A stretch of DNA of 64,000 nt, taken from positions 29,770 through 93,769 of the forward strand of contig CAZSWR010000003.1 of the NCBI GenBank assembly GCA_964610885.1, read 5' to 3'. Both the position numbers and the translations under genes were made by a program. The notes beneath the pieces are model-generated. The model searched no databases. It had not been told where the DNA came from and saw only the letters and a list, made by a program, of their open reading frames with translations. This document shows positions 5,761 to 49,635 of the stretch, one piece after another. Each line of letters opens with the position of its first letter. The first letter of the stretch is position 1. The DNA is from an uncultured Hyphomicrobiales bacterium (GTDB lineage Bacteria; Bacteroidota; Ignavibacteria; Kapaibacteriales; UBA2268).

Positions 5761-5773
5761 TGCTTACGAATTG

Positions 5774-5950
5774 ATACCGCGTTAGCGGTTGTTGTGTTGT
5801 AGAAATTAGTTTCCCCGTGCAAGTCATACAGCGTAGCGGTTGTTTTATAAAACTCCGATTGAATCAACCAAACAAATAGAACATTCGCTACGCGAAATCA
5901 CTACTAAAAAATCAAGATTTAGCTACAATATAACAACCGCTACGCGGTAT
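5774..5950 (+). repeat. family 5: ~177-bp element with ~28-bp TIRs (ATACCGCGTTAGCGGTTGTTGTGTTGTAG / CTACAATATAACAACCGCTACGCGGTAT)
   Basis: Also carries internal sub-repeats cagcgtagcggttgttttat and acattcgctacgcgaaatcac. Confidence 0.8.
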
Positions 5951-5985
5951 AATGCAATATCGATTTACATGTCTTTCGCTTTTTC

Positions 5986-6663: not shown

Positions 6664-6796
6664 AATCAACCACACAATAATTTGAAATAACTACGCAAAG
6701 ATACTCAAAAATTTGGTGAATATGGGCAAAGAGATTGGAAGAAAAAATTGGTTCTGTAACGCTTTGTGTGTGAAAATTGTTCAGGCCCTTCTATTA

Positions 6797-6864
6797 CTCA
6801 TCCGATGGCTCCCGGGGTTATTCATTCGTATTTGACTCCTTACTTCTGTGGTCATCGGATGAGT
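6797..6864. repeat. family 1 copy
   Basis: actcatccgatgg...gtcatcggatgagt. Confidence 0.8.
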
Positions 6865-7190
6865 TTACAAGCACTATGAAGACTGCGCCCACACAGAGCA
6901 GCTGAGTTTTGCAACATATTACCATCCAATACCAATTAAATGCCTTGAAAGTCAGTACTGCCAAGGCCTACGGGCGTGGCCACCAGACAAAGTTCAAATA
7001 TGATATTAATCAAGAGGTAAATTATCGGAAAAAATTTTCTAAAACTTAATAATATCTTTTGCATATATACTTATTTATAACGTAATTTGGATGTTTGAAT
7101 AAATGAAAAATTTGAATTAATTCTGTATAGGATTTCATAAATTTTGGAAACGCATTATTTCATTTGTTAAACTATACAACAGGAGTGCAA

Positions 7191-10100
7191 ATGCACTTTA
7201 AGAAACTATTTTTCATGCTCAGTATTATAGTGCTCGCAGCCGTTTCGGCCTTTGGCCAGACGCACCCTACAGCATATAACCTGAGCGGCGGCAGCTATAA
7301 TTTCAATAGCTGGCTGGGCACGAACCTTTCCGGAACCTACCCACCCAATATGATGTTCCACAGAACAGGCGGAACTACCGACCCGGTAGTTACAACGGCA
7401 ATGGTCGCCGACTACACTCGCGGATATGCCGAAGCGTCCTATGGCCGTATCTATGGCGATGGCGACAATGGCTTTTCGTTTATTAACTCCGGTACCAATG
7501 CCACAGGCCCATACCTTGGCGCCGCAGTCCTTGCGCTGAATACGACAGGCTGCACGAACATCCAAATCGGCTGGACCGGCAGGACAGTAGCCATCGGAAC
7601 GGGCCGCCCCTACGTGGTGCGTTTGGAATACCGCGTCGATACAACCGCCGATTGGTTGGACATGCCCACGACCTCTATGTATGCCGCAACAGGCATACTT
7701 GGTGACTTTACAGTTATGCCCACGGTTACCCTTCCCGCATCTGCCGAGAACCAAGCTTATGTCGAAGTTCGTTGGCACTATTATCAGAATGCCGCAACTG
7801 GATCAGGCAGCCGTCCGCGCATTGGTGTCGATGACATCACCGTTTCGGCCACTGTCGCTTCGGCTCCTGTCGTTACGACTTCAACCGCCACGGGTACAGC
7901 GACTCAAATCACTACCGGCGGAAACGTTACAAATGGCGGCTCTGCCCCCGTTACCGCTCGCGGCGTCTGCTGGGGAACTGCTGTTAACCCCGAAATCACC
8001 GGAGACCACACAACTGACGGCGCAGGCACTGGCGAATTCACGAGTACGATCTCTGGCCTTACGCCCAATACAGTTTATCACGTCCGCGCGTACGCAACCA
8101 ATTCAGTTGGCACTTCGTACGGTAGCGACGTTACCACAAGCACCGGCGGAGCAATTCCGCCGAGCGTCATAACGGCACAGCCTACAGCAACAGCGACAAC
8201 AATTGAAACCGGCGGCAACGTTACCGCAATCGGCTCGTCGGCTGTAACGGCCCGCGGCGTCTGCTGGGGCACTGCCACCGCCCCGACAATTTCCGGGAAT
8301 CACACAACTGACGGCGCAGGTTTAGGCAACTATTTCTCGACAATCACCGGCCTAACTCCCTCGACAACATACTATGTACGCGCCTATGCTACATCTGCCG
8401 ACGGAACCGCTTACGGTTTTGAATACACAATTGCCACACTTGCCCCGCAACCCCCGACGGTTACTACCACTGCCGGAGTCCCCACGGCAACAACGATCGT
8501 TACAGGCGGCAACGTTACCAACGAGGGTACTACTCCCGTTTCGGCTCGTGGCGTCTGCTGGGGCACGGCCACCGGCCCGACGATCGCAGGCAACCACACG
8601 ACAGACGGCACCGGAGCCGGCGTGTTCACAAGCACAATCAGCGGATTGAGTCCGGTAACTACGTATTACATTCGCGCTTATGCAACGAGCGCCTCCGGCA
8701 CATCCTACGGTAGCGAAATCACCGTGAAAACGGCTGTTGGCGCGTACGACCTCTTCGCATCGGAATACAACATGGTTTATTGGGACAGCCTTGCCCTGGC
8801 CGGATCGTATCCGCCATCGATGATCTTCCGCTGCACCACAGCTGTGGATCCGGGACTTGCCAACGAAATGAACAAGGACTGGACTCTCGGATATAATCTG
8901 AAAACCGGTACAAGAATCAACGGCTTGCTCGATAGCGGTTTTTGCTTTGTCAATACAGGCAGCTCGAACGCGGGCGGCGGCTGGCTCGGCACAGCAGAAC
9001 TTTCGCTGAACACTACCAATTGCGCCAATATCGTGGTTAATTGGGTGGGCGGCTTCATGGACCTTAGCAGCTCATCGACACGCGACTGGCGAATCCGTCT
9101 GCAATACAAAGTCGGAACAACCGGCACGTACAACGACGTGATGGACGCAAACGGCCAACCCGTCGAATATAGCTACGACACATATATTAACAACAACAAC
9201 TGGGCTTCGCTACCGCGCGACTCGAAACAGCTCGCCGGCACTTTGCCCTTCGACGCAGAGAACCAGCCCTACGTCGTTGTTCGCTGGAAATTCTACCAAA
9301 AATCGTCAATAGCAGGCGGCGCACGCCCACGAATGAGAATCGATGATATCAACATCACTCGCCAATCCACAGTTGGGACGCCCACCAAGCTCACAATCAC
9401 AGCCGTTACGCCCGAGAAACCAATGACGGGCCTTCCTTTCTCGATTACTGTGAGAAGTACGGACGCCACCGGCGCACCGAAAAATGTTTCGCAGGCCACC
9501 ACGGTAACCCTCTCGAAAACTATCGGCACAGGCAACCTGATGGGCACGCTCACAGGAACAATCCCCGCCGGGCTTAACTACGTGGTGTTTAACAATCTGA
9601 CCTACGAAACCGCCCAGGCAATTACAGTGCGCGCAGACGCATCGCTTGGCGACGTGCTCGGATTCGCCACCAAACAAATCACCGTACTTGCCAAACCGAC
9701 TGTTGCTCTCAACATCTATCCGAAGGGCCACGTCGGAATCGCATTGCCCACCTTCACGGTCGAAGCTCGCAAGGCAAATGCAGAAATCGAAACAAATTAC
9801 TCGAACTACGACGTTACTATCACGAAAGTCTCCGGCCCAGGCAATATCACGGGCGTGATGACCAAGAAAGCCCAGAACGGCGTTGCTTCGTTCGATGGCT
9901 TGGTGTTCAGCGCAGCCGGCTCGTACGTTATTCGCGCAAGCGCACAATTCATTGGCGACGCACCGGATCAGGAAATCGTTATCAACGCAGCTCCTACGCT
10001 GGGCGAGATTATCATTCCGCGCTTCGCTAAGGGCGTCGGGAACGTCGATGAAGTCGATGAAAACAACAGCACACGAGTCCCCACTTATGCACTTGTTACT

Positions 10101-12569
10101 ATTAACAACTTGCACCCGAATACGGTTTACAAATACGTAACCGGCGGCCAAAAATCTGGCTACACAGGCTCGAAAGCCACTGACGGCGGAGCTGGCAACA
10201 ACTTCCACCACAACCACATAATGGACACATACGTCTATTCGACATTCAGAAATACGACCATGACGGACACAACGCCTTATTCGACATTTATGACAGGCGC
10301 TGCCGAAACCAGCAAGACGATTTGGATCAACTTGGTGCCGACTGCCAACGCTATCTTCGCCGAGGACAACCAATTCTATTGGATCGTAACGCTTGGCAAC
10401 GAAAAAGGCCTTATCAACCGCATGCAAACCACCAACCTCACGACATCGCTCGATTTCGGCGTGGGCAGAAAGAATGCAACCGGCATCGCAGACCGCAAGA
10501 GCGACCTCGACGTGAAGAACTTCGTCTGCCTCTACAACGAAACTGCCACCGGCACCCAGCCGATGACCACAGCTATCGTTATGCAAAACGGAGCAGAACT
10601 CCGCTACAACGGCAAGAGCCAAGCCGCTCCATTCTACAGGCTTTTGGAACTCGTTCCGAATTCGTGGGCGACCGTGATCCCGAACGGAATCAAAACCGGC
10701 CAAGACGAACTCGGCCAGCCGATCTACCAAGACGTTTCGCTCAAGAGACTCGAAGAATACTCGCCCAATGGCGTGCTTCTCCACACATGGATCAAAGACG
10801 ACGGCATTTGGAAAGGCGTCAGCACGCTTAACCTGTCCGGCGGCATGACGGCACCTCTCTATTTCGAGACACCGGAAATCACTTTGGTCAATCCTTTGCA
10901 ACACGACGCACAGACTATCTGCAATAGCGAACCTTTTGCCATCACATGGCAATCGCGAGGCATCTCTAACGTCAAAATCGAAGCCTCCGGCGACGACGGC
11001 GCTACCTGGACAACCGTGGCGGCATCCGCTCCGGCAGTTGCATACTCCGTTGGCGATTATTCCTATGGAAGCTACCTGTGGGATATGCCCCGGAACACAT
11101 ACACAAACCGTGCAGTACGCATCCGCGTAACACCGGTCGAACACAGCTACATTTCCTACACAAGCGGCCAACTTACCGTCTTCGACGGAGCCAAAGTGGA
11201 AGGCCTCACAGCGAATCAAATCATTTGCCAAGGCGAAGAACTTTCGTTGCAAGCCAATGCAAGCGGTTCGGGCGTGGGATACCAATGGTGCAAAGACAAC
11301 AAAGAAATCATCGGCGCCACTCTGCCGACGTACACGATCCCAAGCGCAGAATACATAAATTCCGGTATCTATACCTGCAAACTTACTTCGGCAGGCCCCT
11401 GCGGTGTGGTTACGTCGGATCCGATTCTGGTCTATGTGGCCGGCCCGACTCTCGTTACTCGCCAACCCGAGAATCAATCCGTTACCGAAGGTTCTTATGC
11501 TCGCTTCTTCATCGAAGCCCACATCAATGGCGCTCCGCCGGAGTACGTAACATCGTACCAATGGTACCGCAATGGCATGAGAATCACTGACAATGACAAA
11601 TACATCGGCTCGCAAACAGACGTCCTCGTCGTGGCAAACATCACAGCAGACGACAACGGAACTCAATACCATTGCGTTGCAAGAGGCCTCTGCGGTGCAT
11701 CTGCATCCGAGCGCGCCAAAATCACTGTCATCGACGGCGGAATCGTCGTTTCAGAGCAACCTCGCGACCAACGGACATGCCTTGGCTCGTCGGTTTCGCT
11801 TTCCACAGGAATCGAAATCAAAGCAACGGCACGCCCCACGTTCCAATGGTTCAAAGACGGATCGGCAATTCAAGACAACGATCTGTATTCGGGTACCAAT
11901 TCCAAAGTGCTTACAATTGCTAACGCAAACGAAGCCGCAAACGGATACTATCGCCTGTCGATCGTTAACCAAGAAAACGGGACGGAAATCCTTACATCGT
12001 CCGCCAGAGTATCGGTCCAGCCGGAAATTGCATTCGCAATGCCTGCCGAACTTTCGCTCAACATCGGCGAAACGATGATCGTCCGCGCCGAATCGAACGT
12101 TGACGCTACAGCATTCCAATGGTACTTCAATGGCAAGGCAATCGAAGGGGCAAACAATGCCACATTCGAGAAACCCGGATTCAACTTCACCGATTGCGGA
12201 GCATACCACTGCACAGCCACCACGGCCTGCGGCGATTTCACTTCGCCCACGGTGAACGTTACGGCTCTCTACAATCCGACATCGGCCGGAGACGTTTCGG
12301 TTAATGGCTACACACTCGAAGCCATCTCGCCGAATCCTGTTACGACCATCGCAGCAGTTCGCTACTCGCTGCCCGCTGCCGATCAGGTTCGCATCGAGCT
12401 TAGCGACATGTTTGGCAACAAGGTTGCAACGCTTAAATCCGCTTCCGAACAGGGCGCAGGCATTGCGTACATCAATGCAGAAAGCCTGAACCTGGCGAGC
12501 GGCATCTATTACGTAACGCTTAGGGCAGGCAAAGCCACTCTGACGCAGAAAATTTCAGTCGTCAGGTAA
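7191..12569 (+). CDS. giant secreted surface protein with repeats, Ig-like domains and a T9SS C-terminal sorting domain
   Basis: The track ORF starts at TTG 7164. The ATG at 7191 is preceded by AGGAG (7181-7185) and gives the signal peptide MHFKKLFFMLSIIVLAAVSAFGQ. There are three tandem ~99-aa repeats (about 7863-8745), a duplicated ~200-aa N-domain and four Ig I-set-like modules (QWCKDNKEI, YQWYRNGMRI, FQWFKDGSAI, FQWYFNGKAI). The C-terminus is a T9SS CTD (ISPNPVTT...SGIYYVTLRAGKATLTQKISVVR). Confidence 0.9.
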   Translation: MHFKKLFFMLSIIVLAAVSAFGQTHPTAYNLSGGSYNFNSWLGTNLSGTYPPNMMFHRTGGTTDPVVTTAMVADYTRGYAEASYGRIYGDGDNGFSFINSGTNATGPYLGAAVLALNTTGCTNIQIGWTGRTVAIGTGRPYVVRLEYRVDTTADWLDMPTTSMYAATGILGDFTVMPTVTLPASAENQAYVEVRWHYYQNAATGSGSRPRIGVDDITVSATVASAPVVTTSTATGTATQITTGGNVTNGGSAPVTARGVCWGTAVNPEITGDHTTDGAGTGEFTSTISGLTPNTVYHVRAYATNSVGTSYGSDVTTSTGGAIPPSVITAQPTATATTIETGGNVTAIGSSAVTARGVCWGTATAPTISGNHTTDGAGLGNYFSTITGLTPSTTYYVRAYATSADGTAYGFEYTIATLAPQPPTVTTTAGVPTATTIVTGGNVTNEGTTPVSARGVCWGTATGPTIAGNHTTDGTGAGVFTSTISGLSPVTTYYIRAYATSASGTSYGSEITVKTAVGAYDLFASEYNMVYWDSLALAGSYPPSMIFRCTTAVDPGLANEMNKDWTLGYNLKTGTRINGLLDSGFCFVNTGSSNAGGGWLGTAELSLNTTNCANIVVNWVGGFMDLSSSSTRDWRIRLQYKVGTTGTYNDVMDANGQPVEYSYDTYINNNNWASLPRDSKQLAGTLPFDAENQPYVVVRWKFYQKSSIAGGARPRMRIDDINITRQSTVGTPTKLTITAVTPEKPMTGLPFSITVRSTDATGAPKNVSQATTVTLSKTIGTGNLMGTLTGTIPAGLNYVVFNNLTYETAQAITVRADASLGDVLGFATKQITVLAKPTVALNIYPKGHVGIALPTFTVEARKANAEIETNYSNYDVTITKVSGPGNITGVMTKKAQNGVASFDGLVFSAAGSYVIRASAQFIGDAPDQEIVINAAPTLGEIIIPRFAKGVGNVDEVDENNSTRVPTYALVTINNLHPNTVYKYVTGGQKSGYTGSKATDGGAGNNFHHNHIMDTYVYSTFRNTTMTDTTPYSTFMTGAAETSKTIWINLVPTANAIFAEDNQFYWIVTLGNEKGLINRMQTTNLTTSLDFGVGRKNATGIADRKSDLDVKNFVCLYNETATGTQPMTTAIVMQNGAELRYNGKSQAAPFYRLLELVPNSWATVIPNGIKTGQDELGQPIYQDVSLKRLEEYSPNGVLLHTWIKDDGIWKGVSTLNLSGGMTAPLYFETPEITLVNPLQHDAQTICNSEPFAITWQSRGISNVKIEASGDDGATWTTVAASAPAVAYSVGDYSYGSYLWDMPRNTYTNRAVRIRVTPVEHSYISYTSGQLTVFDGAKVEGLTANQIICQGEELSLQANASGSGVGYQWCKDNKEIIGATLPTYTIPSAEYINSGIYTCKLTSAGPCGVVTSDPILVYVAGPTLVTRQPENQSVTEGSYARFFIEAHINGAPPEYVTSYQWYRNGMRITDNDKYIGSQTDVLVVANITADDNGTQYHCVARGLCGASASERAKITVIDGGIVVSEQPRDQRTCLGSSVSLSTGIEIKATARPTFQWFKDGSAIQDNDLYSGTNSKVLTIANANEAANGYYRLSIVNQENGTEILTSSARVSVQPEIAFAMPAELSLNIGETMIVRAESNVDATAFQWYFNGKAIEGANNATFEKPGFNFTDCGAYHCTATTACGDFTSPTVNVTALYNPTSAGDVSVNGYTLEAISPNPVTTIAAVRYSLPAADQVRIELSDMFGNKVATLKSASEQGAGIAYINAESLNLASGIYYVTLRAGKATLTQKISVVR

Positions 12570-12679: not shown

Positions 12680-12750
12680 GAGACTTCCATAAAAAAACGT
12701 TTTCTTAAGTCCCTTCTACCGTCGGGAGAAGGGCTGGGGACGAGGGTATA
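12680..12750 (+). repeat. family 3: ~70-bp module ending in hairpin CCCTTCTCCCG-CCG-GGAGAAGGG + CCGGGGATGAGGGTATA
   Basis: gagacttccat...acgttttcttaagtcccttctaccgtcgggagaagggctggggacgagggtata. Confidence 0.8.
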
Positions 12751-12798
12751 GAATATATTTCATATTTTTAATGAATAATCCAGGTTTATATCGCTTAG

Positions 12799-13016
12799 GA
12801 GGCTGTTGAAAAAGTAAAAGATTTGCAACAATGGGTTTCAACCTATTGCATGTATTGCTGTAACTCATTGAAATATCGACAAATCCCCCAACCCCCTTTT
12901 TCTAAGGGGGCTAAAGAATGGTATGGGCTAATACATTGATAATATAGTAGTTATGGTTTGTATCGAACCCACGGGTTAACCCGTGGGATGGCACAGAGCT
13001 ACTTTTTCAACAGACT
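12799..13016. repeat. family 6: composite bounded by AGGCTGTTGAAAAAGTA / TACTTTTTCAACAGACT, enclosing a family 4 module
   Basis: Left end at 12799-12815 and right end at 13000-13016. The right sub-module is ccacgggttaacccgtgggatggcacagagctactttttcaacag. Confidence 0.65.
12878..12921 (+). repeat. family 4: AAATCCCCCAACCCC...AAGGGGGC module
   Basis: gacaaatcccccaaccccctttttctaagggggctaaagaatgg. Confidence 0.8.
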
Positions 13017-13501
13017 GTTAGTATGGGTAGATACAATACGCCAAAAAACCGAGGCATGCATATCTTGAAATCCTCTTCTCGAGAATAATTTCTAACCACC
13101 CCAGAAACCCATTGCTGCGCAACGGATTTCTCATCCCATCCTTGGCAAGGAGGGGACCAAAGGGGAGGTTTAATGATTTAAATAGCTCGCCCACCTAACA
13201 CGATATAGAACCAATAATAACACGAGTATAATACTTTCACTTGAAATGCGCCGTAACGAACTTGCGGCGCTTTTTTTGTTTGTGCCGCTGTTTTTCTTCG
13301 ATTTTCCTTCGGCGAAACGAGTTAATTTCCTTATTTTTGTACGGAGTTTGAGCGTGCAATCGGCACAAACCAATTCATGTGGCGACTGCCACTATATTAT
13401 CAAGGGCAGCGCAATGATGAAATGAATGGTGAACAAGATTCATTATTCCTTATGTTAGAATGAAATTTAACTTTTTATATTAATAATCAAAGTACTAAGC
13501 A

Positions 13502-15947: not shown

Positions 15948-16019
15948 GAGGGACTTCCAACAAATCACGTTTTCTTACTCCCTTCTCCCGCCGGGAGAAG
16001 GGCCGGGGATGAGGGTATA
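15948..16019 (+). repeat. family 3 copy
   Basis: gagggacttccaa...cacgttttcttactcccttctcccgccgggagaagggccggggatgagggtata. Confidence 0.85.
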
Positions 16020-16119
16020 ACAAAAATGTCAAATCCTTAATGAACAATTTGGTATAAAAAAAACTCTATTGCGCGCATTTCGTTTGCAATAGAGTTTCTT
16101 CGTTTCTCGAGGTGTAAAA

Positions 16120-17872: not shown

Positions 17873-17939
17873 ACTCGTCCGATGACTACAGATTCTGCAA
17901 TGTCAATTACGAATGAATGCCTATATTCATCGGATGCGT
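17873..17939. repeat. family 1 copy (diverged)
   Basis: actcgtccgatgact...ttcatcggatgcgt. Confidence 0.7.
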
Positions 17940-20592: not shown

Positions 20593-21185
20593 TGTGTCTC
20601 GCGTGGATATTTATAATTAAGTCAAAATAATAAACGTAAATAATGCTTCCGATAAAGCAATTACAAAAATACAAAAAAATCGACAAACCCGGCCTTATGT
20701 AATATGGATGCGAGACGACCAGCAGCGCGCGATTACGCGAATTTCGCAATTCAGGATGGAGCATCGAAGCCATGAATCGTAATACTAAGGCGAATATGTG
20801 CTTATCAAATATGATCGGAAATGAATTCATGCTCATCTTCCATTTCGCCATTGCGCTGCTCATGAAAAACAAGTGGCAGATGCCACCTGAATTGTGCCAT
20901 CCTTTCCCACTGCCCAATTCCTTGCCAACTCTCTAATATTCACGAGCATAAAATAGATTTACGGCACATACATCATTAGTATTATTTAGCTGTGAATTAT
21001 TGGGGGGGATAATTGAGCTGAGCAAAATTGATACTTGGGCAGGGCAGGAGGAGCAAGAAAAAAATCATTTTTTGCCTCCTGACGTGCAGGAGTGAATGCA
21101 AAATAGATTGTGCGCAGCAAGTAGCGTTGCAAGCTGTGCCGCTATCTTTTATTTGTGATTTTCCATCATTATTTTTGGAGTATCT

Positions 21186-22223: not shown

Positions 22224-22287
22224 GAGAGCGAGTGAATAATTGGTTTCTATCCATTGCCTGTATCGCAGTAAGTTATTGATATACCAG

Positions 22288-22400
22288 CAAATCCCCCAAC
22301 CCTGCTTTGTCAAAGGGGGCTTAAAAAACAATTATTATGACACTAAATTTATATTTAGGTGGATTCTTATCCCCCTCTAAAAAGCAGGGGTTAGGGGGTG
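22288..22400. repeat. family 4: two inverted copies 48 bp apart (MITE-like)
   Basis: Left copy is caaatcccccaaccctgctttgtcaaagggggc (22288-22320). Right copy is atccccctctaaaaagcaggggttagggggtg (22369-22400). Confidence 0.75.
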
Positions 22401-22569: not shown

Positions 22570-24417
22570 ATGAGCGAAAAAACAAGTTTCGAATTCAGAG
22601 CAGAAATGAAACAATTGCTTAACCTGATCATCCATTCGCTTTATACGCACCCCGAGGTGTTCCTTCGCGAATTGGTTTCCAACTCTTCCGATGCGCTAAA
22701 CAAAGTCCGATTCCGCCGGCTGACCGACCCGAACATCGCCGACCCCGAGCTTGAGCTTAACATTAAAATTACTGCCGACAAAGAGCAGGGCATCTTCGCA
22801 ATCGAAGACTCCGGCTGCGGCATGACTCGCGAGGACTTGGTGAACCAAATCGGGACTATCGCGCAGAGCGGTACGCTACAATTCCTCTCGAAGCTGAAAG
22901 AAGAACAAAAATCACTGGACGGCAACCTTATCGGCCAGTTCGGCGTCGGGTTCTACTCCGTCTTCATGGTTACCGACGAGGTTACAATCGAAACCAGGGC
23001 GGCAGACCCGGACTCGAAGTCCTGGCGGTGGAATTCGCGCGGCGAGGACAGCTTCACCATCGAGGAAATCGATGCGCGCCCCCGCGGCACTCGCATTTCG
23101 TTCAAGCTCAAGGACGAATACCAAGAGTTCTACGAAGACTATCGCATCAAAAGCACGATCAAGAAATACTCCAATTTCGTCGATTTCCCGGTTTTCGTGG
23201 GCGGAGAGGAAGTCAATAAAGTTACGGCACTATGGCACCGCAAGAAAGAGGACATCACGGACGAAGAGCTGAACGAGTTCTATAAATTCCTTACGAACGA
23301 TTTTTCCGAACCGATGGGCCACGTGCAGCTGAACATCGAGGGGAACCTCAATTTCAAAGGCCTGCTTTTTATCCCGAAATCCGCACCGCCGATGATGTTC
23401 CGCGAATCGCACGAAAAGACATTGCACCTGTACTCGAACAAGGTTTTCATCCAAGACGACGCCAAAGAACTGCTGCCGGACTACTTGAAATTCGTCAAAG
23501 GCGTGGTCGATACCGAAGATCTTCCGCTGAACGTCTCGCGCGAGGTAACGCAGAATTCGCCCCTCATGGGCAAAATCAGGAACGTGGTTACCGGGAAAAT
23601 CCTTTCGCTGCTCGAGGAATGGGCCGCGAATGACGCCGAAAAGTATAATACATTTTTCACAAATTTCGGCACTATGTTCAAAATCGGTATAAATTCGGAT
23701 TTCACGCACAAACAACGCATTCTCGAGTTGCTCCGGTTCGAAAGCTCGCGCACCGAACCCGGCAAATACACATCGCTGAAGGACTACGTCTCGCTCATGC
23801 AACCCGAGCAGAAGGAAATATACTACATCCTGGGCGACAGCCGCGAGAAGTTGGAACGCAATCCCAACCTGGAATACTTCAAAAAGCAGAATATCGAAGT
23901 AATCTTCCTGACCGACCCTGTGGACGTCTTCACGATTCCTTACGTCCACGAATACGAAGGCAAACAACTGAAGTCCATCGACAAATCGGATATCGACATC
24001 CCGAAGGACAGCGCACCCACGGACAGCTTGGCGCCGGAGATGTCTCGGTCGATCATCGATGCATTCAAGTCCGCACTGGGCGACCGAGTGGAGGACGTGG
24101 TCGAATCGCAACGTTTGGTCAGTTCGCCGGTTACGCTCGTCGGCTCGAAGAACGCACCGGACGCGCAGATGGAAAAAATGATGCAAATACTCGACAAGGA
24201 CTTCACGGCATCGAAGAAAGTCCTCGAGGTCAACATGGGCCACGAAATTATCAAGAGCTTAGCAAAAATATCACTTTCGGATCCGTCGGATCCAAGGATT
24301 GGCCGCTCGGCGCTCCAGCTTTTCGAAAGCGCATTGCTTCTGGACGGGCAGCTGCGCTCGCCATCGGATTTCGTCAGCCGAATGAATGAAATTCTGGCCG
24401 ACGAGCTGAAGAAATAG
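22570..24417 (+). CDS. htpG: molecular chaperone HtpG (Hsp90)
   Basis: 615 aa with GHKL N-domain motifs FLRELVSNSSDALNK, EDSGCGMT and IGQFGVGFYS. Confidence 0.97.
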   Translation: MSEKTSFEFRAEMKQLLNLIIHSLYTHPEVFLRELVSNSSDALNKVRFRRLTDPNIADPELELNIKITADKEQGIFAIEDSGCGMTREDLVNQIGTIAQSGTLQFLSKLKEEQKSLDGNLIGQFGVGFYSVFMVTDEVTIETRAADPDSKSWRWNSRGEDSFTIEEIDARPRGTRISFKLKDEYQEFYEDYRIKSTIKKYSNFVDFPVFVGGEEVNKVTALWHRKKEDITDEELNEFYKFLTNDFSEPMGHVQLNIEGNLNFKGLLFIPKSAPPMMFRESHEKTLHLYSNKVFIQDDAKELLPDYLKFVKGVVDTEDLPLNVSREVTQNSPLMGKIRNVVTGKILSLLEEWAANDAEKYNTFFTNFGTMFKIGINSDFTHKQRILELLRFESSRTEPGKYTSLKDYVSLMQPEQKEIYYILGDSREKLERNPNLEYFKKQNIEVIFLTDPVDVFTIPYVHEYEGKQLKSIDKSDIDIPKDSAPTDSLAPEMSRSIIDAFKSALGDRVEDVVESQRLVSSPVTLVGSKNAPDAQMEKMMQILDKDFTASKKVLEVNMGHEIIKSLAKISLSDPSDPRIGRSALQLFESALLLDGQLRSPSDFVSRMNEILADELKK

Positions 24418-24423
24418 TATAAT

Positions 24424-24775
24424 GGCGTGTTTGGAACCCGCCCTTTGATGTGATGATGTGCTGATGTGATGATGTGCTGATGTGATGATGTGCTGATGTG
24501 ATGATGTGATGATGTGATGATGTGATGATTGACTCTCGTATAGGAAAATGTTGTAGGGGCACGGTATGACATGCCTCTACTCAATGCAGAGTATTTGAAA
24601 TAACCGAATTATATTGAATTCACATGAATATCTAATATTGTTCTATATGAATCATATTCTCGGGCGGGTTTGGAACCCGCCCCTACATTCTTTTCACATT
24701 ATTCAATCAAACCAATCACAGAAATCACACGAATCACAGTTCAGACAAACAACTCATCAGCCAATCATCACGTGA
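24424..24775 (+). repeat. family 7: composite element (8-mer tandem arm, hairpin A, AT spacer, hairpin B, inverted 8-mer arm)
   Basis: Module A is tgtaggggcacggtatgacatgcctctac (24552-24580). Module B is tatatgaatcatattctcgggcgggtttggaacccgcccctaca (24644-24687). The right arm has aatcaca units (24713-24775). Confidence 0.8.
24447..24526 (+). repeat. perfect-period 8-bp tandem repeat, 10 units (GATGTGAT/GATGTGCT)
   Basis: gatgtgat gatgtgct x3, then gatgtgat x4, followed by gattgact. Confidence 0.95.
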
Positions 24776-24776
24776 A

Positions 24777-26036
24777 TTATCTCTTGGGTTGTATGTTGAG
24801 CATTTTGGGGCGCATGATCGCCTTTTCTACTGATTTGCCGTATGCCTTCGGGGCCAGGTATTTGCCTTTTTCTGATTGTGGCTTCTCGGATTCGACGACG
24901 ATTCTGTTCTGCTCGGCCCAAGCGTCGCGCCTCGTGCCCGTTACCTGCCAGGATACCTTCTGGCCTGGTTTGCCGCCGGAAATTGTGAAGCGGTTGTTTG
25001 CGATTTCCTCGGCCACATAGACAGGCGCCCACGCGCCAATAGAAGTGAGTTGGTAGCGATAGTCCTTGTTCAAAGCGGCGAACCAATCGGGCAGTACAAC
25101 AGTTGCCGAACCGTCGTCGCCGAGCACTGCGATGCCGTCGTAGAGGTTTTTCATGTCGGGCGATTCGACAAATGAGTGCGCAAGGTATTTGTTTTCGGGG
25201 TCCAGAGGATGGTCGATCTTGAAGCTGCCGCCCAATTTCTCCAAGGTACCAGTTACCACCACGCGGCCCTCGAAATAGGCTGCTTTGTCCGCTCCGCCGA
25301 TGAATCCCCAGTTGCCATTGATGTGTTCTCCGCCCACGGCATAGTTGTCGTTGCCGAGGTAGCCGAAAGTGGGTGCTGTCGGGATACTGTCTCCGTAGAT
25401 ACCGACCACGCCGGCTGTCGTTGTGCCCAAGTATCCTTTGAAGCCCGGATATTCGCCATTGGTGCCTGTTGCGCCGGCATCGTAGGCCCCCAGGGTTCCG
25501 GAATTGCCCGCAAAGGACGAACCAAAAACACCGACGTCGAATCCGCCGAGCACTCCTGTATTGCCCATCGATTTGCCTGTGATGGCGTCGCCTTCGATTA
25601 GGTTTTTAATTTGGAACACTGTCGATGGAGTGGCCGCCGAATCCGCATACGGTAGCGAAATTGATTGCGACATTATCGCCGAGGGGACGGACGAAAGAGC
25701 TATGCGCGGATAGATAATGAAATCAGTTGAGTTCTCCACCTCGAGGTACAACTGTTGGGAGAAATTGACGAATGAAAGCGGAGTAATGCGGCCCAATATG
25801 CTGCTAATCAGTCCATCTTCGATATATGCACTTTGGTTTTCGACCCAAAGCGGAGTGCCGCCGGTTTCGGTGGAAAACAGCCTGTAGATAATACTTTTGT
25901 TCCCCACGAGTGGCGCGCCGGACTGGAGCGTGAACTTCCCTTGGAAATTAATAGTTTGGGGCGCACCGGCTCTCGCTGCAACGAAGCAAAGCACAAACAA
26001 CAAAAGTACAAGTATCTTTTTCATCATTGTCTCCAA
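24777..26036 (-). CDS. hypothetical secreted fibre-like protein with a Gly-rich middle region
   Basis: 419 aa with signal peptide MMKKILVLLLFVLCFVAARA, a Gly/Thr-rich repeat tract (GNTGVLGGFDVGVFGSSFAGNSGTLGAYDAGATGTNG) and a conserved-looking C-domain (FKIDHPLDPENKYLAHSFVESPDMKNLYDG). Function unknown. Confidence 0.6.
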   Translation of the reverse strand: METMMKKILVLLLFVLCFVAARAGAPQTINFQGKFTLQSGAPLVGNKSIIYRLFSTETGGTPLWVENQSAYIEDGLISSILGRITPLSFVNFSQQLYLEVENSTDFIIYPRIALSSVPSAIMSQSISLPYADSAATPSTVFQIKNLIEGDAITGKSMGNTGVLGGFDVGVFGSSFAGNSGTLGAYDAGATGTNGEYPGFKGYLGTTTAGVVGIYGDSIPTAPTFGYLGNDNYAVGGEHINGNWGFIGGADKAAYFEGRVVVTGTLEKLGGSFKIDHPLDPENKYLAHSFVESPDMKNLYDGIAVLGDDGSATVVLPDWFAALNKDYRYQLTSIGAWAPVYVAEEIANNRFTISGGKPGQKVSWQVTGTRRDAWAEQNRIVVESEKPQSEKGKYLAPKAYGKSVEKAIMRPKMLNIQPKR

Positions 26037-27753: not shown

Positions 27754-27890
27754 AGGGACTGTCTCAAATGTGTCATTCTGAACGTAGTGAAGAATCCATG
27801 CCATTCATAAGTACTTGCTAATAATGGATGTTTCACTTCGCTCAACATGACAATAAAACAGTTTTTCGGGCTTTTGAGACAGCCCCCTAC
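27754..27890 (-). repeat. family 2: ~137-bp element with GGGGCTGTCTCAAAAG TIRs and an inner 26-bp inverted repeat
   Basis: About 90% identical by eye to the reverse complement of 57439-57575. Its terminal CTAC...GTAG contains the stop codon of the gene at 27887. Confidence 0.85.
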
Positions 27891-30043
27891 TCTACCATAA
27901 ATTTTCCGACGGCCACTGTCCGGCCGCCAACGCTTGCGCGGGCAAAGTACGCACCCTTCGCGAAGGCGCTGCAATCGATGCTGATTTCGGCTGTGGCTGT
28001 GGATTTCTGGAACGCGGCCACGTAACACCGCTCGCCGAGAGATGAGGATACTTCGACAGTACCGCTTCCAACTTCATCGCCACCGATAGTGAGGATTGTT
28101 TGCGCGTGGGCCGGATTCGGCACGGCCACGATCGAATTCATCGGCGGGACGGATCCGTCGCCCTCGGCCGGCGTGAAGTTCCAATCGGGCGCCCATTCGG
28201 CCAGGTCGGAGCGATAGGTCATTGCAAGCAAGTATTTGCCCGACGGAGAAATAATGACTTTGCATATCGGAGTGCCGAACAGGTCATTGTAAACGAACTG
28301 GGTGCGGCCCGACTCGGCGTCCAGGGTTGCTATTTCGCCCATCGAAGATGAATACACAATGTGTTTCCCGTCCGGCGTGTAGTTCAGAGTGAACGGAGCG
28401 ACCCATTTGAGTTTAAAAGTCTTAAGGACGGAACCGTCCGCGGTGGAAAAAATGCGCAGAGTGTCTGTGGAGTCCGCAATGGCAATGCTGCGGCTGTCCG
28501 GCGCGAAGGCGGCCGAGCCATAGCCAATATAGGCATTGTTGAATCCAAGGGCATCAAACACTTTCCCGCCTGTCCGTGTGTTGTATATGCTGTATCCCGC
28601 GTATGGTTCTTTCCAATCGATTAAATAGTTTTTGATGGCGAGGCAAGTATTGCCGTCGGGCGAGAGCTTCACAATCCCGGCGGGGCAATCGAAGGACGCG
28701 CCAACTTCTTTCGTGCGCAGGTCCACCACGAAGGCTTTGCCTGAAGTGTCCTGTACGACTACACTTGTAACGTCTTGATTGGAGCAAGCACGACTCGCAC
28801 CCAATTTAGGAATAGGAATTGAATCCAATAATGCCTCTTCGCCCAAAGTTCGTTTCTCAATCCTGCCTGCGCGGACGTACCACACGCTCTCGAGGGATGG
28901 GTCTAGAGTAAACCGAGGACCTATGAATGGGTATTCATTCAAATTATAAGAATACGAACCGGCATAATTTTCATTTTCAATTTTATTGCCAAAAGAAGAG
29001 GCCCAATAATGCAATGGGCCAACAGAAATTGAAACACCGGCAATTACTTCTTCGTTTTGCGAATATCGCAATGGAAAAGCATAGTAATTATTGAGGGAAT
29101 ATAGTGTGTCCCCATTGAAATTGAAACCAAATAAACTGAAGTCATCAAAGTACAAAAACTTGTCACCCGACCTAAACATCTGGCCATAGAATGGCTTGTT
29201 GTGGCGAGTGAATGGCTTATCAGGTTCCATATAGAATAGAGTATCGCCTGTTTGAAAAATCAGTGCGTTATTCGCCTTGTCGAATAGATATGCACCGCCA
29301 TGGAGAAACAAGCTGTCCTCCCAACGGCACAACTCGGCTCCGTTATCGGAACTGTGCTTAATAAAAAACACACTGTCCGCCGTGAAGAAGCATTTCCCAT
29401 CTTGGGAAAAGCCTCTGAAACTCGAATTGTCGTGGAATCGAGTAAAAAGCGAATCGCCCGTTTTCATGTCGTAGTAAACGTCGAAATACGTATAGGCAAC
29501 TCGCAGGCGTGACCGATCCTTGGATGCTGAAGCGCCCTGCACTTCGTCCCAAGCCTCTTGGGTGGGGAAGCTGAAGGTGGCCAATCGCTCTTTGTTCTCG
29601 AGGTCGTAGCATTTCAGCACGCGCTTATCAAGGCTGTAGAGCGCTTTGATGGGCTTAGAATCGTAGAGGTATTGGCAAAAGGATGAGCCTACCGGGAATG
29701 TGTCGGGGATGGCCAAAGTGCTCATAACATTGCCGTGCTTGTCCTTTTTCTCCACGCTTCGCACTCCATCCATGAAGTATTCGGTGATGAAAGTCGAATC
29801 CGATTCGTCGAACAAAAGGGATAATTGCACAGTGTCGCTTATCAATACGGGAAACCCATTTGCCTTGTTTAGGACAATTGCATGGGATGCATTATTATGA
29901 AAAACGAAGCAATTGTATTGAATTGAGTTCTGAAAACTATCATCATTATTGAAGAAGTTAATGAACTTCAGGTATGGGTTTGTCTTGGCAAAGCAAGTAG
30001 CCGAAATAGCGAGCAGAATCAAAGGGAGGAATGTTTTTTTCAT
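27887..30043 (-). CDS. secreted WD40/beta-propeller protein with a T9SS C-terminal domain
   Basis: Signal peptide MKKTFLPLILLAISATCFA from ATG 30043 (the track starts at TTG 30055). Propeller-like repeats (SPDGNTCLA, APDSRSIAIA, TPDGKHIVYSS, SPSGKYLLA). CTD-like end (VPNPAHAQTILTI...GAYFARASVGGRTVAVGKFMVE). Confidence 0.8.
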   Translation of the reverse strand: MKKTFLPLILLAISATCFAKTNPYLKFINFFNNDDSFQNSIQYNCFVFHNNASHAIVLNKANGFPVLISDTVQLSLLFDESDSTFITEYFMDGVRSVEKKDKHGNVMSTLAIPDTFPVGSSFCQYLYDSKPIKALYSLDKRVLKCYDLENKERLATFSFPTQEAWDEVQGASASKDRSRLRVAYTYFDVYYDMKTGDSLFTRFHDNSSFRGFSQDGKCFFTADSVFFIKHSSDNGAELCRWEDSLFLHGGAYLFDKANNALIFQTGDTLFYMEPDKPFTRHNKPFYGQMFRSGDKFLYFDDFSLFGFNFNGDTLYSLNNYYAFPLRYSQNEEVIAGVSISVGPLHYWASSFGNKIENENYAGSYSYNLNEYPFIGPRFTLDPSLESVWYVRAGRIEKRTLGEEALLDSIPIPKLGASRACSNQDVTSVVVQDTSGKAFVVDLRTKEVGASFDCPAGIVKLSPDGNTCLAIKNYLIDWKEPYAGYSIYNTRTGGKVFDALGFNNAYIGYGSAAFAPDSRSIAIADSTDTLRIFSTADGSVLKTFKLKWVAPFTLNYTPDGKHIVYSSSMGEIATLDAESGRTQFVYNDLFGTPICKVIISPSGKYLLAMTYRSDLAEWAPDWNFTPAEGDGSVPPMNSIVAVPNPAHAQTILTIGGDEVGSGTVEVSSSLGERCYVAAFQKSTATAEISIDCSAFAKGAYFARASVGGRTVAVGKFMVE

Positions 30044-30062
30044 AATAACTTCCAATCTAAAC

Positions 30063-30091
30063 GGGGCTGTTGGAATTACTCCAACAACCCC
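30063..30091 (-). terminator. stem-loop between the decayed cargo gene and the next gene
   Basis: GGGGCTGTTGGA / TCCAACAACCCC (11 of 12 pairs, 5-nt loop) with a weak U-tract on the minus strand. Confidence 0.4.
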
Positions 30092-30099
30092 ATTGATAA

Positions 30100-31002
30100 T
30101 TATTTAACAACAGTGAAAGAACCTGTTAGGAATGAATAGTTCGGAGATACTCCCAATCTAATTCTATAAGTATAGACTCCATTGGGTAATTCAGAGATAT
30201 TCGCGTTTTAAGTACTGTTTAATGAAGAAATGCTGAAAGAATTTGAAATTAAAAGCACATTATATGTATTGTAAATTTCTAGAACACACGTACCTTCGTA
30301 CGATGAAAAGATGTTGAAATTAATTGTTTCTGATGCTGGATTTGGTGAGATACGAACAGTATTTGCATTAAGAGTTGTTGAATCCTGAGGGATAGGATTC
30401 GGATTATTTCCACCACTAGCGGCCTCCATTGCCGAAAGTGTTGTGACTTCTCTTGTTAAAGTTCCGGCGTTATAAATAATTCCACCTGTTGTTGGTGAGA
30501 TAATATCATGATAATGGGGTGGTTCATTAAAGTCTATGGTCATAGGATTATCTGTTGTGCCATTGCCAACGTACATTGGTGCTTCAGAATCGGCCACTGG
30601 GCCACAGGCCATATCAAGGCATTGTTCCTGACAGGGCCTGTTATCACTTGAAATAGCAATATCATCTTGTAAAGTAAATGCACTTCTACTTTTGTTTAAT
30701 TGTTTTCTAACTTTAATTCTGTGTTTACAACATTTTAGCCAACAACTCTGTATATTTGATGTTATCATTCCATCGCTGACATCGTTGTATCTTTCGGTAA
30801 TCGTATTGTTATCATTATCCAACCTTTGATAAAAATAATATGTCAGTCTCAAATCATTTGAAGAATTGTATCCGACACAGCTAGGTGTAGCAATTTCATA
30901 ACTATAAGTAGCACCAATATTCCAAGGATAACGAATAAAAGAATATGCTGACAAAGTAAGCAAATCAACAGCCCTTCTAATATTAAATCTAATCGAAGAC
31001 AT
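30100..31002 (-). pseudogene. decayed T9SS cargo gene whose CTD is split by an in-frame TAA and which has no signal peptide
   Basis: The ORF ends ...ISPNPASETINFNIF...VLEIYNTYNVLLISNSFSISSLNST then TAA (30208-30210). The same frame continues NANISELPNGVYTYRIRLGVSPNYSFLTGSFTVVK to TAA at 30100-30102, which is the missing second half of a T9SS CTD. AT-rich. Confidence 0.7.
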
Positions 31003-31088
31003 ATCTTGAAGAAATCTCTGTGCACAAATATCGCAATTAGATTTTGTGCCATGTGATCCGTTCTGATTTAGATAATATAGATCAAATT

Positions 31089-31493
31089 CTAAAAATTAAC
31101 TTCAATAACAACTTCATTCGCATGTTTCCTTTCTCTAATCCACAATTTTGCAAGGACAACACAATTGTTATCTATTTCATTACCTGAATAAGAACCATCT
31201 GATGTAGTTGGATTTACAGCATGATATTGAAAACCAATAGGATGCCACGGGCCGTAACGACAGTTAGTATCCTCGACAAAACAATTTGGACCTACTACAA
31301 TATAGTCTTCGATATAAGGTCTCATTCTTTCATTATCTAGAACTTCCTCAACATAATCAAATGTCCCTGGGAATAACCCTGTAGGCGGGAATGTTACTAC
31401 TTGAGCTTCTGCAACTACGTTTGCAGCGAAGAGAACGAAAAGCACTGCGAGTGCGGATTTGATAGTCATTTTCATGTAATTTTCTTTTTTCAT
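31089..31493 (-). CDS. small secreted hypothetical protein
   Basis: Signal peptide ...MKMTIKSALAVLFVLFAANVVAEA|Q. Possible starts are at 31493, 31475 or 31469. AT-rich. Confidence 0.5.
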   Translation of the reverse strand: MKKENYMKMTIKSALAVLFVLFAANVVAEAQVVTFPPTGLFPGTFDYVEEVLDNERMRPYIEDYIVVGPNCFVEDTNCRYGPWHPIGFQYHAVNPTTSDGSYSGNEIDNNCVVLAKLWIRERKHANEVVIEVNF

Positions 31494-32220
31494 TTGTGTT
31501 ACAAAAATAAATAATTTTTTCACACAAGCATTGACTATATTTGCAATGCCTGCAAGGGCGAACAAGTGCGGCAGAAATGCCGTGCGAAGGGGTATCCGAA
31601 ACAAAAGTCTTCGAAAACTATTCGGATACTCTTTTTTATATTCATGTCATAGCAATTTCCTTTCTATTCCTTTCGTAAAATCATTTTATACAAATCTACA
31701 AAACAATCCCGAATAAAACAAATAGAAAAATTATATCAACTATTATATTTATCATATACTTATGAATACAGCAAACGGCGGCGGTGGCCAGTTTTGGTTC
31801 GTGGCTTCGGGGGTCAGGCTCTCGCTTCTGGATAAGCCCATCGGCAAAACACTTTTTCGTGAATTGCATTCATTGATATTAGTACAACAATCGAGATTGC
31901 ATTTTGATTCATCTTTTTGAAAATATTTTTTTCGTCGTTTATTATCAACGACTTACGCCTGCGGGAAATTACCCAATAAGCTACTAATTTGAGGTAGTAT
32001 TAATATTTATATGGTTCAATTGCGGATTGAATAGGTTGGGTCAGATTCCAAACCCGACCAAAGGGGATATAATAGAGTTATCTATTGAAAAAGTTGATTC
32101 TGATCGGTTGCACTTCGAGTTTCATAAGACATGTAATATATTGACACAAGAGGAGATTCCTCATTCGCGTGAACGACAGAAACACCCGAATTCAAATAGT
32201 AAATGATACTATTGAAACAT

Positions 32221-36432: not shown

Positions 36433-36505
36433 TACTCTTTTTACTGTTAGTTACTTATTTCTCAAAGCGAATAATTATTCCTTTTTCATCAAAGAAATTA
36501 TATTA

Positions 36506-36547
36506 CACCGTTCTCCTGTCGGGAGAAGGGCCGGGGATGAGGTAATA
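36506..36547 (+). repeat. family 3 copy (5'-truncated)
   Basis: caccgttctcctgtcgggagaagggccggggatgaggtaata. Confidence 0.75.
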
Positions 36548-36569
36548 TAGCTAAAGGTCAAATTATATA

Positions 36570-36746
36570 TTACCGCACGAGCGGTTGTTCTTTTGTAGCA
36601 AATTGTTGAATTTTTGTATGTGATTTCGCGTTAGCGAATGTTTTATATAATTGGTTGAATTATACAGGGTATAATAAAACAACCGCTTGCGGTATTACTT
36701 GCAAATCAAAAATTACACCTACAATACAATAACCACTACGCGGTAT
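36570..36746 (-). repeat. family 5 copy in the opposite orientation
   Basis: The same TIRs and the same internal modules, in reverse-complement order. Confidence 0.8.
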
Positions 36747-36843
36747 CAGTTCGCAATTATTACTTTTTTGGAGGGCCACTTTAGCAGCAAACAGATTAGT
36801 TTTGGGGTAACATATATTCGAGAAGTTAATTGCATGAAGATGA

Positions 36844-42891: not shown

Positions 42892-42919
42892 AAACCCGCC
42901 CTCAGAAGCGGGTTTTTTT
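42892..42919 (+). terminator. rho-independent terminator of plsY
   Basis: AAACCCGC / GCGGGTTT stem with an 8-nt loop, followed by TTTTT. Confidence 0.8.
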
Positions 42920-42920
42920 A

Positions 42921-43167
42921 TATGATGTGCAGATGTGAAGATTCGCTCTCGCACAAGCAAATGTTGTAGGGGCATGGCTAAATATATATTTGCTCTCCAT
43001 TGTTCTCTCCCGTCTCCCGTTGCTCCGCCTCGCGAGACGGGGTTATTCATATTCAACCCCATCGGGGTTGGTTTTATATCGCAGCATAGTTTCCCCACAA
43101 ACGAATCACACTAATCAAACGAATCATATTAATCACACTTCAGACAATCACCACATCATCACATCAA
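42921..43167 (+). repeat. family 7 copy with different internal hairpins
   Basis: Left arm is tatgatgtgcagatgtgaagattcgctctcg...aaatgttgtaggggcatgg. Internal hairpins are cccgtctc..gagacggg and caaccccatcggggttg. Right arm is aatcacactaatcaaacgaatcat...catcatcacatc. Confidence 0.7.
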
Positions 43168-49570: not shown

Positions 49571-49635
49571 TGGGCACCTTTTACTTTTTCTTTTGTATAT
49601 TGCTTGTTGATTGGTTTGTCAGATTTGGATAATAT

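Follow-up and report, generated by a model that had tools for sequence, protein, structure and literature searches.

Tagged hairpins and tandem octamers in five intergenic repeat copies of an uncultured bacterium: a probable mosaic of small modules

Repetitive extragenic palindromes (REPs) are defined by a GC-rich stem, paired throughout and closing a 2–5-nt loop, with a GTAG or GTGG tag 0–2 nt to its 5' side (PMC6006769). In the GTAG-tagged families the stems measure 6–13 (7–20) bp, the loop consensus is CMA, and the head-head dimer is the commonest arrangement (PMC3733652); these REPs are mobilised by the REP-associated tyrosine transposase RAYT, or TnpA-REP (PMC2817692; PMC8266576). Here we describe a set of intergenic repeats in a 64-kb stretch of DNA (the window, in whose positions all coordinates are given) from an uncultured bacterium of the Fibrobacterota–Chlorobiota–Bacteroidota (FCB) group. 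The region at 24424–24775, termed c1, has four relatives in the window, c2 (~42924–43166), c3 (~49353–49571), c4 (61091–61224) and c5 (61480–61690), and mobility-gene and copy counts below refer to the window. The repeat family is real and statistically solid. A first-pass annotation had described a single composite element in five copies that belonged to no described class. We find that a mosaic of independent modules fits the copies better, as the arms are widespread independently of the rest, and that the central modules have the tag, stem and loop by which GTAG-REP head-to-head dimers are defined (PMC3733652; PMC6006769). With a probability of roughly 0.6, then, the five copies are intergenic mosaics of independent small repeats, similar to bacterial interspersed mosaic elements (BIMEs), and not one new kind of element.

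The two hairpins at the centre of c1 both open with GTAGGGGC and face each other. This motif occurs 8 times in the window against 0.67 expected, a count above that of every shuffle, and 7 of the 8 occurrences lie within the five copies; at the single intragenic one, at 7606, the hairpin was not found. REP-A consists of GTAG followed by GGGCACGGC-ac-GCCGTGCCC, a 9-bp perfect stem with a 2-nt loop, and REP-B of GTAG followed by GGGCGGGTT-cca-AACCCGCCC, a 9-bp perfect stem with a 3-nt loop. In both, the GTAG stands 0 nt from the stem (REP-A at 49353 and, on the minus strand, at 61223; REP-B at 24686 and 49480 on the minus strand and at 61116 on the plus strand). All copies of REP-A and REP-B in the window are intergenic. 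The hairpin modules proposed earlier for c1 are thus present, at 24553–24580 and 24662–24686, but a well-preserved REP-A is confined to c3 and c4: the c1 copy is degenerate, that of c2 retains just 13 nt, and the REP-B of c3 is likewise degenerate.

REP-A, a spacer and an inverted REP-B follow one another in c1, c3 and c4, with the tags facing outward, the hairpins 60–80 bp apart and the spacer 70–84% conserved (77–84% in repeat families D8, I2 and I3). The blocks of homology between 24553–24693 and 49353–49488, and between 49350–49481 and 61226–61115, open at the GTAG of REP-A and close at the CTAC of REP-B. Relative to the arms the dimer can point either way, and its flanking contexts are of three kinds. 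As the homology is limited by GTAG and CTAC while flanks and orientation change, it is the ~130-bp hetero-dimer that constitutes the duplicated unit. REP-A and REP-B share only GTAGGGGC; their stems are unrelated and cannot pair with each other, and the dimer is therefore not a REPIN (a REP doublet forming a hairpin). It stands nearer to an E. coli BIME, in which REPs of different type alternate about a conserved motif (PMC2817692). The components of the five copies are as follows.

24423–24443 (−): REP-B remnant without the GTAG tag, 2 mismatches to GGGCGGGTTCCAAACCCGCCC, between the htpG stop and the c1 left arm
24446–24529 (+): c1 left arm, octamers GATGTGAT/GATGTGCT, 10.5 units of period 8, 92% matches, score 147 (Tandem Repeats Finder, TRF)
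24530–24552 (+): c1 linker GATTGACTCTCGTATAGGAAAATGT, common to c2 within a 56-nt repeat of 82% identity, 24509–24564 with 42922–42977 (family D13)
24553–24580 (+): c1 REP-A, degenerate, GTAG followed by GGGCACGG..GCCTCTAC, matching GTAGGGGC and homologous to 49353–49376
24581–24661: c1 AT-rich dimer spacer, 86-nt repeat of 80% identity with 49396–49481 (D8) and inverted match of 83 nt, 84%, with 61114–61196 (I2)
24662–24686 (−): c1 REP-B, 0 mismatches, the same 25-mer occurring in genomes of many phyla
24704–24773 (−): c1 right arm (TRF period 9), made up in this order of degenerate AATCACAnn 9-mers, TTCAGACAA and degenerate octamers
42924–43166 (+): c2, with a left arm of 2.4 units, linker, the first 13 nt of REP-A (42965–42977) and a right arm at 43098–43166
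43009–43041 and 43054–43070: hairpins unique to c2
49353–49481 (+): c3 REP dimer, with REP-A at 49353–49376, spacer, and REP-B at 49456–49480
49480–49571 (+): c3 right module CTACTTGCTACTTTTACC.., then reverse octamers at 49526–49570; 92 nt, 83% identity with 61589–61680 (family D7)
61091–61224 (+): c4, with left arm 61091–61114, REP-B 61116–61140 (+), spacer, and REP-A 61200–61223 (−)
61480–61690 (+): c5, with left arm 61480–61514, linker, hairpin 61563–61595, a duplication of CTACTTGCAAC at 61598–61634, and right arm 61635–61690

The kinship of the copies was assessed by sensitive blastn among ~9.6 kb of intergenic DNA and proved sound, with E values from 6e-11 to 2e-23. Copy c1 aligned with c3 over 143 nt (73%, E = 2e-19) and, inverted, with c4 over 142 nt (73%, E = 1e-21); c3 aligned with c4 over 132 nt (70%, E = 4e-16) and with c5 over 92 nt (83%, E = 2e-20), and c4 with c5 over 113 nt (80%, E = 2e-23). 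The similarity did not collapse under alignment statistics, and the best alignments (c1 with c3, c1 with c4 and c3 with c4) lie outside the tandem arrays. Relative to c1 and c3, the c4 dimer is inverted. It had also been claimed that central hairpins are swapped while the flanks persist, and this is what we see between copies. The perfect hairpin described before in c5 is confirmed, at 61563–61595, where a stem of 15 bp closes a loop of 3 nt; it is unique in the window. The motif CTACTTGCAACTTTTACC, said to persist with the arms, occurs only in c3 and c5.

Another palindrome borders on several of these sites. We observed this ~70-bp sequence, H (ACTCATCCGATGAC..(~40 nt)..GTCATCGGATGAGT), at 5693–5760, 6796–6864, 17873–17939, 49169–49236, 61023–61090 and 61419–61486; each half is itself an 11-bp palindrome, TCATCnGATGA, and the halves lie 53–56 bp apart. 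The copy at 61021–61091 abuts the c4 left arm, that at 61417–61487 abuts the c5 left arm, and that at 49169–49236 lies upstream of c3. An octamer-like stretch at 5654–5693 precedes an H copy.

To place REP-B among other genomes, we scanned one genome per species for its core, CGGGTTWKGAACCCGCCCCTAC, which gave at least 108 loci (L001–L108); the statements that follow concern the matches and loci listed, which do not include the window's own genome. They come from Firmicutes (Oscillospiraceae), Desulfobacterota (Desulfobacteraceae), Chloroflexi (Anaerolineae, Dehalococcoidia) and Planctomycetes, and also from Nitrospirota, Omnitrophota, Spirochaetota, Rubrobacter and others. A GGG before the pattern completes the 9-bp stem in 109 of 126 matches, and many matches have a second GTAG hairpin 19–186 nt away. 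The stem varies at two positions, which change together (CA/TG, AG/CT, AC/GT), so that 46 of 48 are still paired; 1000 shuffles gave 28 on average and 37 at most. From this completion of the stem by GGG and its paired variation, REP-B belongs to a broad, structure-constrained GTAG-REP superfamily. Spurious open reading frames (ORFs) across the REPs aside, no neighbouring protein recurred near REP-B among the 108 loci, and octamer units were present in only 1 of them. The 25-mer GTAGGGGCGGGTTCCAAACCCGCCC is essentially identical across about ten phyla, often with many copies per genome (for example in Desulfobacteraceae JBAZWJ01 and in metagenome-assembled genomes of rabbit-gut Oscillospiraceae), a conservation that is unexpected if REPs co-evolve with a vertically inherited RAYT. 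Viral contigs gave 15 matches to the REP-B pattern and 12 to the array pattern.

The arms of the copies are tandem octamers. With ≤2 mismatches allowed, the window contains 23 matches to GATGTGMTGATGTG, where 0.66 would be expected, and this count is again above every shuffle. All five copies are flanked by housekeeping genes, and the varied gene contexts noted before were recovered:

c1, convergent: HtpG (+) and a 419-aa ORF (−) at 24777–26036
c2, co-directional: PlsY (+) and flavin reductase (+)
c3, divergent: radical-SAM protein (−) and DinB-like polymerase (+)
c4 and c5, convergent: acyl-CoA dehydrogenase (+) and HtrA (−)

The c1 left arm, for which an array of some ten units had rightly been described, lies in sense orientation 28 nt past the htpG stop (24415–24417). 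The c1 right arm is degenerate, as the first-pass annotation had it, but its AATCACA units recur every 9 nt and are broken by TTCAGACAA; it is homologous to the c2 right arm, TTCAGACAA included, and on the minus strand it is a sense trailer that begins ~6 nt after the stop (24777–24779) of the 419-aa ORF. The c1 arms thus appear inverted because each trails one of two convergent genes, an arrangement that yields a forward-then-reverse array pair. The c5 right arm (minus strand) trails htrA, beyond the htrA terminator, and the c5 left arm lies in sense orientation ~500 nt past the acyl-CoA dehydrogenase stop. In c3 the reverse octamers end 66 nt upstream of the dinB-like start. Across the window, arms of period 8 range from 2.4 to 10.5 units. 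Inverted arms had been attributed to all five copies and do enclose c1, c2 and c5, but c3 has no left arm and c4 no right arm.

A scan of metagenome contigs for GATGTGATGATGTGNTGAT yielded at least 120 loci (L109–L228), most of which hold period-8 (GATGTGNT)n arrays of up to ~30 units, some of 26–31; the results that follow are for the loci listed. None of these 120 loci resembles the window at the DNA level, except for one weak coding match, and none has a REP beside the array, the matches to GTAGGGGC there being chance intragenic ones. The arrays are placed with strong bias. Of 53 arrays with genes on both sides, 42 lie closer to the upstream gene, taken in the GATGTG sense (p = 2e-5). In 32 cases ≤15 nt separate array and upstream gene, compared with 6.8 expected under uniform placement, and the downstream gene is abutted by only 2. 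The stop of a co-oriented gene is abutted by 38 arrays, at a median gap of 1 nt, and an opposite-strand stop by 2. In nine arrays the first unit begins within the TGA stop, and stop-codon-anchored arrays can be seen at, for example, L213, L137, L216, L218 and L182. Inverted array pairs within 400 nt have the forward-then-reverse order seven times and the opposite order not once. Array length varies: five contigs covering one orthologous site carry 5, 5, 5, 10 and 27 units beside a flanking gene that is 74–87% identical, and of two near-identical contigs whose displayed flanks are the same, one has 18 units and the other 31.

Because the metagenomic arrays stand without REPs and arrays are rare at REP loci, the arrays are an independent and widespread component anchored at stop codons. 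Their features are consistent with a tandem repeat that is prone to slippage and yet kept in place. Literature searches by sequence and by octamer-repeat terms found no description of the octamer array. Other short-period arrays, (GCTCAATG)n, (AATTATGA)n and (TTCATCA)n, were observed beside GATGTG arrays (L137, L171, L176), and several unit types seem to expand in one kind of intergenic position.

We compared the window with relatives at two places, the left boundary of c2 (the plsY side) and the side of c1 that carries the 419-aa ORF; exact-protein look-ups for HtpG, flavin reductase and acyl-CoA dehydrogenase gave no matches. Five short-read contigs (samples ERR3438381-92) encode a PlsY that is 98% identical and are 80–94% identical to the window in DNA. 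All five stop exactly 84 nt past the plsY stop and, after a shared plsY terminator, run into a different repeat (..TTTGTCATTCTCGCGAAGC) instead of the c2 arm. As the relatives diverge there, the left end of c2 is at 42924, its first GATGTG unit. In a more distant relative, whose version of the 419-aa ORF is 85% identical, other repeat modules lie past the stop of that gene and the octamer trailer is absent. A further contig of a relative, L257, has, head to tail, a REP-A-like hairpin, CATCACATCA (a reverse octamer in one or two units) and REP-B; an H half-site is present there too. Modules shared by the lineage are thus differently placed and combined, which is mosaic behaviour. Short-read contigs of relatives break at these repeats. 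A 132-nt palindrome observed in the window at 27755–27886 and 57441–57571 (92% identity) reads GGGGCTGTCTCAAAAG....CTTTTGAGACAGCCCC and then CTAC, so that it too is GTAG-tagged; its family ends contigs L256 and L257 and occupies the relatives' sites orthologous to c1 and c2.

Together, these comparisons suggest how such mosaics may arise. By analogy with REPs and BIMEs, the REP dimer would be moved as folded single-stranded DNA by a RAYT (TnpA-REP), an HUH tyrosine enzyme, encoded elsewhere. The arms are slippage-prone GATGTGNT arrays, which in many other genomes stand on their own and typically start at the stop of the co-oriented upstream gene; in c1 and c2, arm plus linker were copied together with the centre. 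Other palindromes, such as H and the unique hairpins, would occupy the remaining slots, and recombination between dispersed arms or hairpins probably shuffles the centres and gives the copies their cassette-like look. Pairing of the arms (GAUGUGAU with AUCACAUC), whether in single-stranded DNA or in a read-through transcript, could close a long hairpin tipped by the REP stems, and the likely effect would be a 3'-end barrier or an insulator between transcription units, as proposed for REPs and BIMEs. We regard the composite as a recombinant patchwork, not a new machine.

Several observations weigh against the mosaic reading. Copies c1 and c2 align over their full length, both arms and linkers included (259 nt, 59%, E = 6e-11), and c5 is a single long imperfect palindrome; both fit a composite that moves whole. 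The linker GATTSRCTCTCG.. and the interruption by TTCAGACAA, both of them unique, are common to the arms of c1 and c2, and so arms and centre were copied together at least once. Neither c2 nor c3 has a right arm that trails a gene. The 64 kb hold 4 copies of REP-B and 4 of REP-A, two of the latter degenerate, so that a high copy number is an extrapolation. GTAG REPs have been reported in Proteobacteria, Cyanobacteria, Chloroflexi and the Planctomycetes–Verrucomicrobia–Chlamydiae (PVC) group and not in Bacteroidetes/Chlorobi (PMC3733652), and our assignment extends the family. Finally, no RAYT, Y1_Tnp or any other transposase was found by Pfam among the 40 window ORFs. RAYTs are usually single-copy (PMC5581495), and their absence from 64 kb therefore says little; RAYT subclasses 2.4 and 2.6 are on record for Bacteroidetes (PMC6006769). 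It is therefore plausible that the genome encodes a RAYT outside the window, and the earlier suggestion to look for RAYT/TnpA(REP) was a good one.

The arrays could also be given the leading part. The GATGTGNT arrays might be a distinct and widespread stop-anchored trailer of FCB-group bacteria, acting in translation termination or re-initiation or in transcript fate. Arrays that face each other would then be a scaffold on which hairpin cassettes, REP dimers among them, are caught and swapped; the literature searches gave no description of such a scaffold either. We consider this extended proposal tentative and rather doubtful.

The whole unit may instead be a non-autonomous transposon resembling a MITE (miniature inverted-repeat transposable element), where the octamers would be transposase-binding sites forming terminal inverted repeats, the transposase would be encoded elsewhere and the central hairpins would be cargo or later insertions. 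The homology of c1 and c2 begins in the interior of the left array and ceases where the right array ends, and c5 aligns with its own reverse complement over 201 nt (64%, E = 7e-15). The arms of c1, c5 and c2 are all paired in the predicted minimum-energy structures, a close relative lacks c2 at the orthologous site, at least on the left, with the break exactly where the first GATGTG unit starts, and inverted array pairs occur in other genomes too (for example at L138 and L187). Yet the boundaries of c1, c2 and c5 show no target-site duplication, nor does the c2 left boundary in comparison with the relatives. The arms are unequal or missing, with one arm only in c3 and c4 and, in c1, periods of 8 and 9 and imperfect pairing; those of c2 and c5 are complementary. 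In most of the metagenome loci the array stands alone, at orthologous sites and anchored at a stop, which is unlike a transposon end; the window holds no transposase, and no protein family recurs near the arrays in the 120 loci listed, syntenic orthologues aside. We therefore judge a MITE unlikely.

Quite improbable in our view, though compatible with the BIME-like mosaic reading and not exclusive of it, is the proposal that the repeats are mainly functional RNA features, 3'-trailer or 5'-leader modules that govern termination, re-initiation, read-through or the decay of mRNA. Forward arrays, rich in GU, and reverse arrays, rich in CA and free of G, would then serve as platforms for protein or ribosome binding and would have spread by selection, not by transposition. 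Such a role would accord with the start of the arrays at stop codons, in sense, far above chance, and with their retention at one site over the 74–87% identity range of the flanking gene. The reverse array abuts the next start codon in some co-directional pairs (L187, L157, L153); the forward orientation offers ATG or GTG starts and TGA stops in every frame, and the reverse has neither stops nor G. Single strands also fold strongly, with z-scores against dinucleotide shuffles of −5.5 for c1, −6.6 for H plus c5 and −3.7 for c2. However, no Rfam gathering score was reached anywhere in the window, and the copies of H and of the REPs in the window genome differ by pair-breaking, not compensatory, changes. 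At orthologous sites of close relatives the elements are replaced by other repeats, which argues against a site-specific function.

A coincidence of low complexity, or an assembly artefact, is hardly credible: tandem repeats do inflate local alignment scores and short-read contigs of relatives do break at repeats, but the alignments of c1 with c3, c1 with c4 and c3 with c4 lie outside the arrays at E values of 1e-16 to 1e-21, the motif counts exceed every shuffle, and relatives that were assembled independently show the same modules again.

Known features were also sought. Archaeal C/D-box small RNAs (sR11, sR20 and others) scored 13–23 bits, compared with thresholds of 38–54, and were rejected, as GUGAUGA and CUGA strings explain the matches; the sub-threshold matches at 24446–24537 and 61658–61701 come from GUGAUGA, read as a C box, alternating with CUGA, read as a D box, at 8-nt steps, which we judged coincidental. 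H as a structured RNA was likewise rejected, its copies differing by changes that break pairs and are left uncompensated. No tRNA or tmRNA was found, and no sigma-70 promoter in c1 or c4/c5, the scan model leaving out Bacteroidota-type promoters. The view that the repeats are not simply terminators was upheld, as 24350–24850 and 60950–61800 contain no site with a hairpin plus T-run; a genuine terminator at 42893–42919 precedes c2 and lies outside the element. A CRISPR-like array was rejected because the units are contiguous, without spacers.

As to the host, its HtpG is ≤65% identical to any entry in the protein collection, with best matches labelled Bacteroidota, Ignavibacteria, Kapabacteria and KSB1, and a Pfam scan found the type IX secretion sorting domain in two window proteins. 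Two low-GC stretches, 30001–32000 and 54001–56000 (GC 0.36 and 0.39, compared with ~0.49 elsewhere), may be acquired islands; 30001–32000 includes ORFs that lack a Pfam match. Within an ORF at 7164–12569 (1801 aa), 7896–8614 contains three 294-nt tandem repeats of 69–72% identity that resemble coding domain repeats. A GC-rich hairpin repeat, CCCTTCTCCCGCCGGGAGAAGGGCCGGGGATGAGGG, has three copies of 84% identity (12701–12750, 15970–16019 and 36498–36547) and lies within a longer module shared by 12682–12779 and 15952–16048. More intergenic families, of 45–198 nt and 75–87% identity, some palindromic, pair 5764–5958 with 36562–36756, 12827–12918 with 22235–22327, 12875–12918 with 44889–44933, and 13371–13444 with 20820–20894. 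Of the larger intergenic regions in the window, the majority contain one or more modules of this sort.

If the mosaic reading is true, GTAG-type REP/BIME mosaics extend to a deep lineage of the FCB group. One REP hairpin is found nearly unchanged in many phyla, which bears on whether REP–RAYT systems are inherited purely vertically. The hairpin mosaic is of a known kind, and the stop-anchored arrays are the unexplained and more interesting part: abundant, keeping their place across species while varying in length between strains, they offer a testable lead on 3'-end biology in bacteria of the Bacteroidota type, which are not known to use classical Shine-Dalgarno-led initiation. In practical terms, octamer arrays are a cause of assembly breaks.

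Set beside the described systems, the window's hairpins are closest to GTAG-tagged REPs, with which they share the GTAG, a 9-bp stem and a 2–3-nt loop, the REP-B loop CCA fitting CMA; the dimers agree in their outward tags, 60–80-bp separation and extragenic position, and REP-B also in its complementary stem sub-families and presence in distant phyla (PMC3733652). They differ in that the window host is of the FCB group, for which that survey gave only CGTC-type REPs, that the two REPs of a dimer come from different families, that the dimers are often flanked by octamer arrays, and that there is no RAYT in the window. Enterobacterial BIMEs likewise combine two REP types in alternating orientation with a conserved spacer, in locus-specific combinations and in intergenic positions, mostly downstream of genes (PMC2817692). 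The window's mosaics have tandem octamers and other palindromes as extra modules and are unrelated to BIMEs in sequence and lineage; in E. coli, BIMEs are bound by IHF, gyrase and Pol I, whereas no such binding protein is known for the window's repeats. In REPINs, as in the window, two inverted REPs and a spacer are copied as a unit of ~100–130 bp (PMC3116915), but the REPs of a REPIN are near-identical and pair with each other, whereas those of the window share only GTAGGGGC. The GTAG-15 dimers of Anabaena variabilis and the CGTC-1 dimers of Halothiobacillus also place a REP dimer centrally in a longer inverted repeat (PMC3733652); the outer palindromes of A. variabilis and H. neapolitanus are of unique sequence and were not found without a REP, whereas arms of the window type occur without REPs in c5 and in metagenomes.

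The BrickBuilt MITE of Porphyromonas gingivalis is a small non-coding Bacteroidota repeat that combines inverted and tandem repeats (PMC4596501). Its minisatellite is internal, between conventional terminal inverted repeats, whereas the 8-bp repeats of the window form the arms themselves. The BrickBuilt minisatellite unit is reportedly 23 bp long. For the arrays, comparable short tandem repeats are the cyanobacterial STRR (short tandemly repeated repetitive) heptamers. The nearest published analogue is the TAACTGA heptamer of Beggiatoaceae, Cyanobacteria and some Bacteroidetes: like the octamers, these are short head-to-tail units in runs of up to tens, intergenic and orientation-biased, with stops in all frames of the forward orientation, a copy number that varies between relatives, and an unknown function (PMC4679880). 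The octamer differs in its 8-nt unit, GATGTGNT, in its possible inverted pairs, and in being anchored at the upstream stop and not just upstream of starts.

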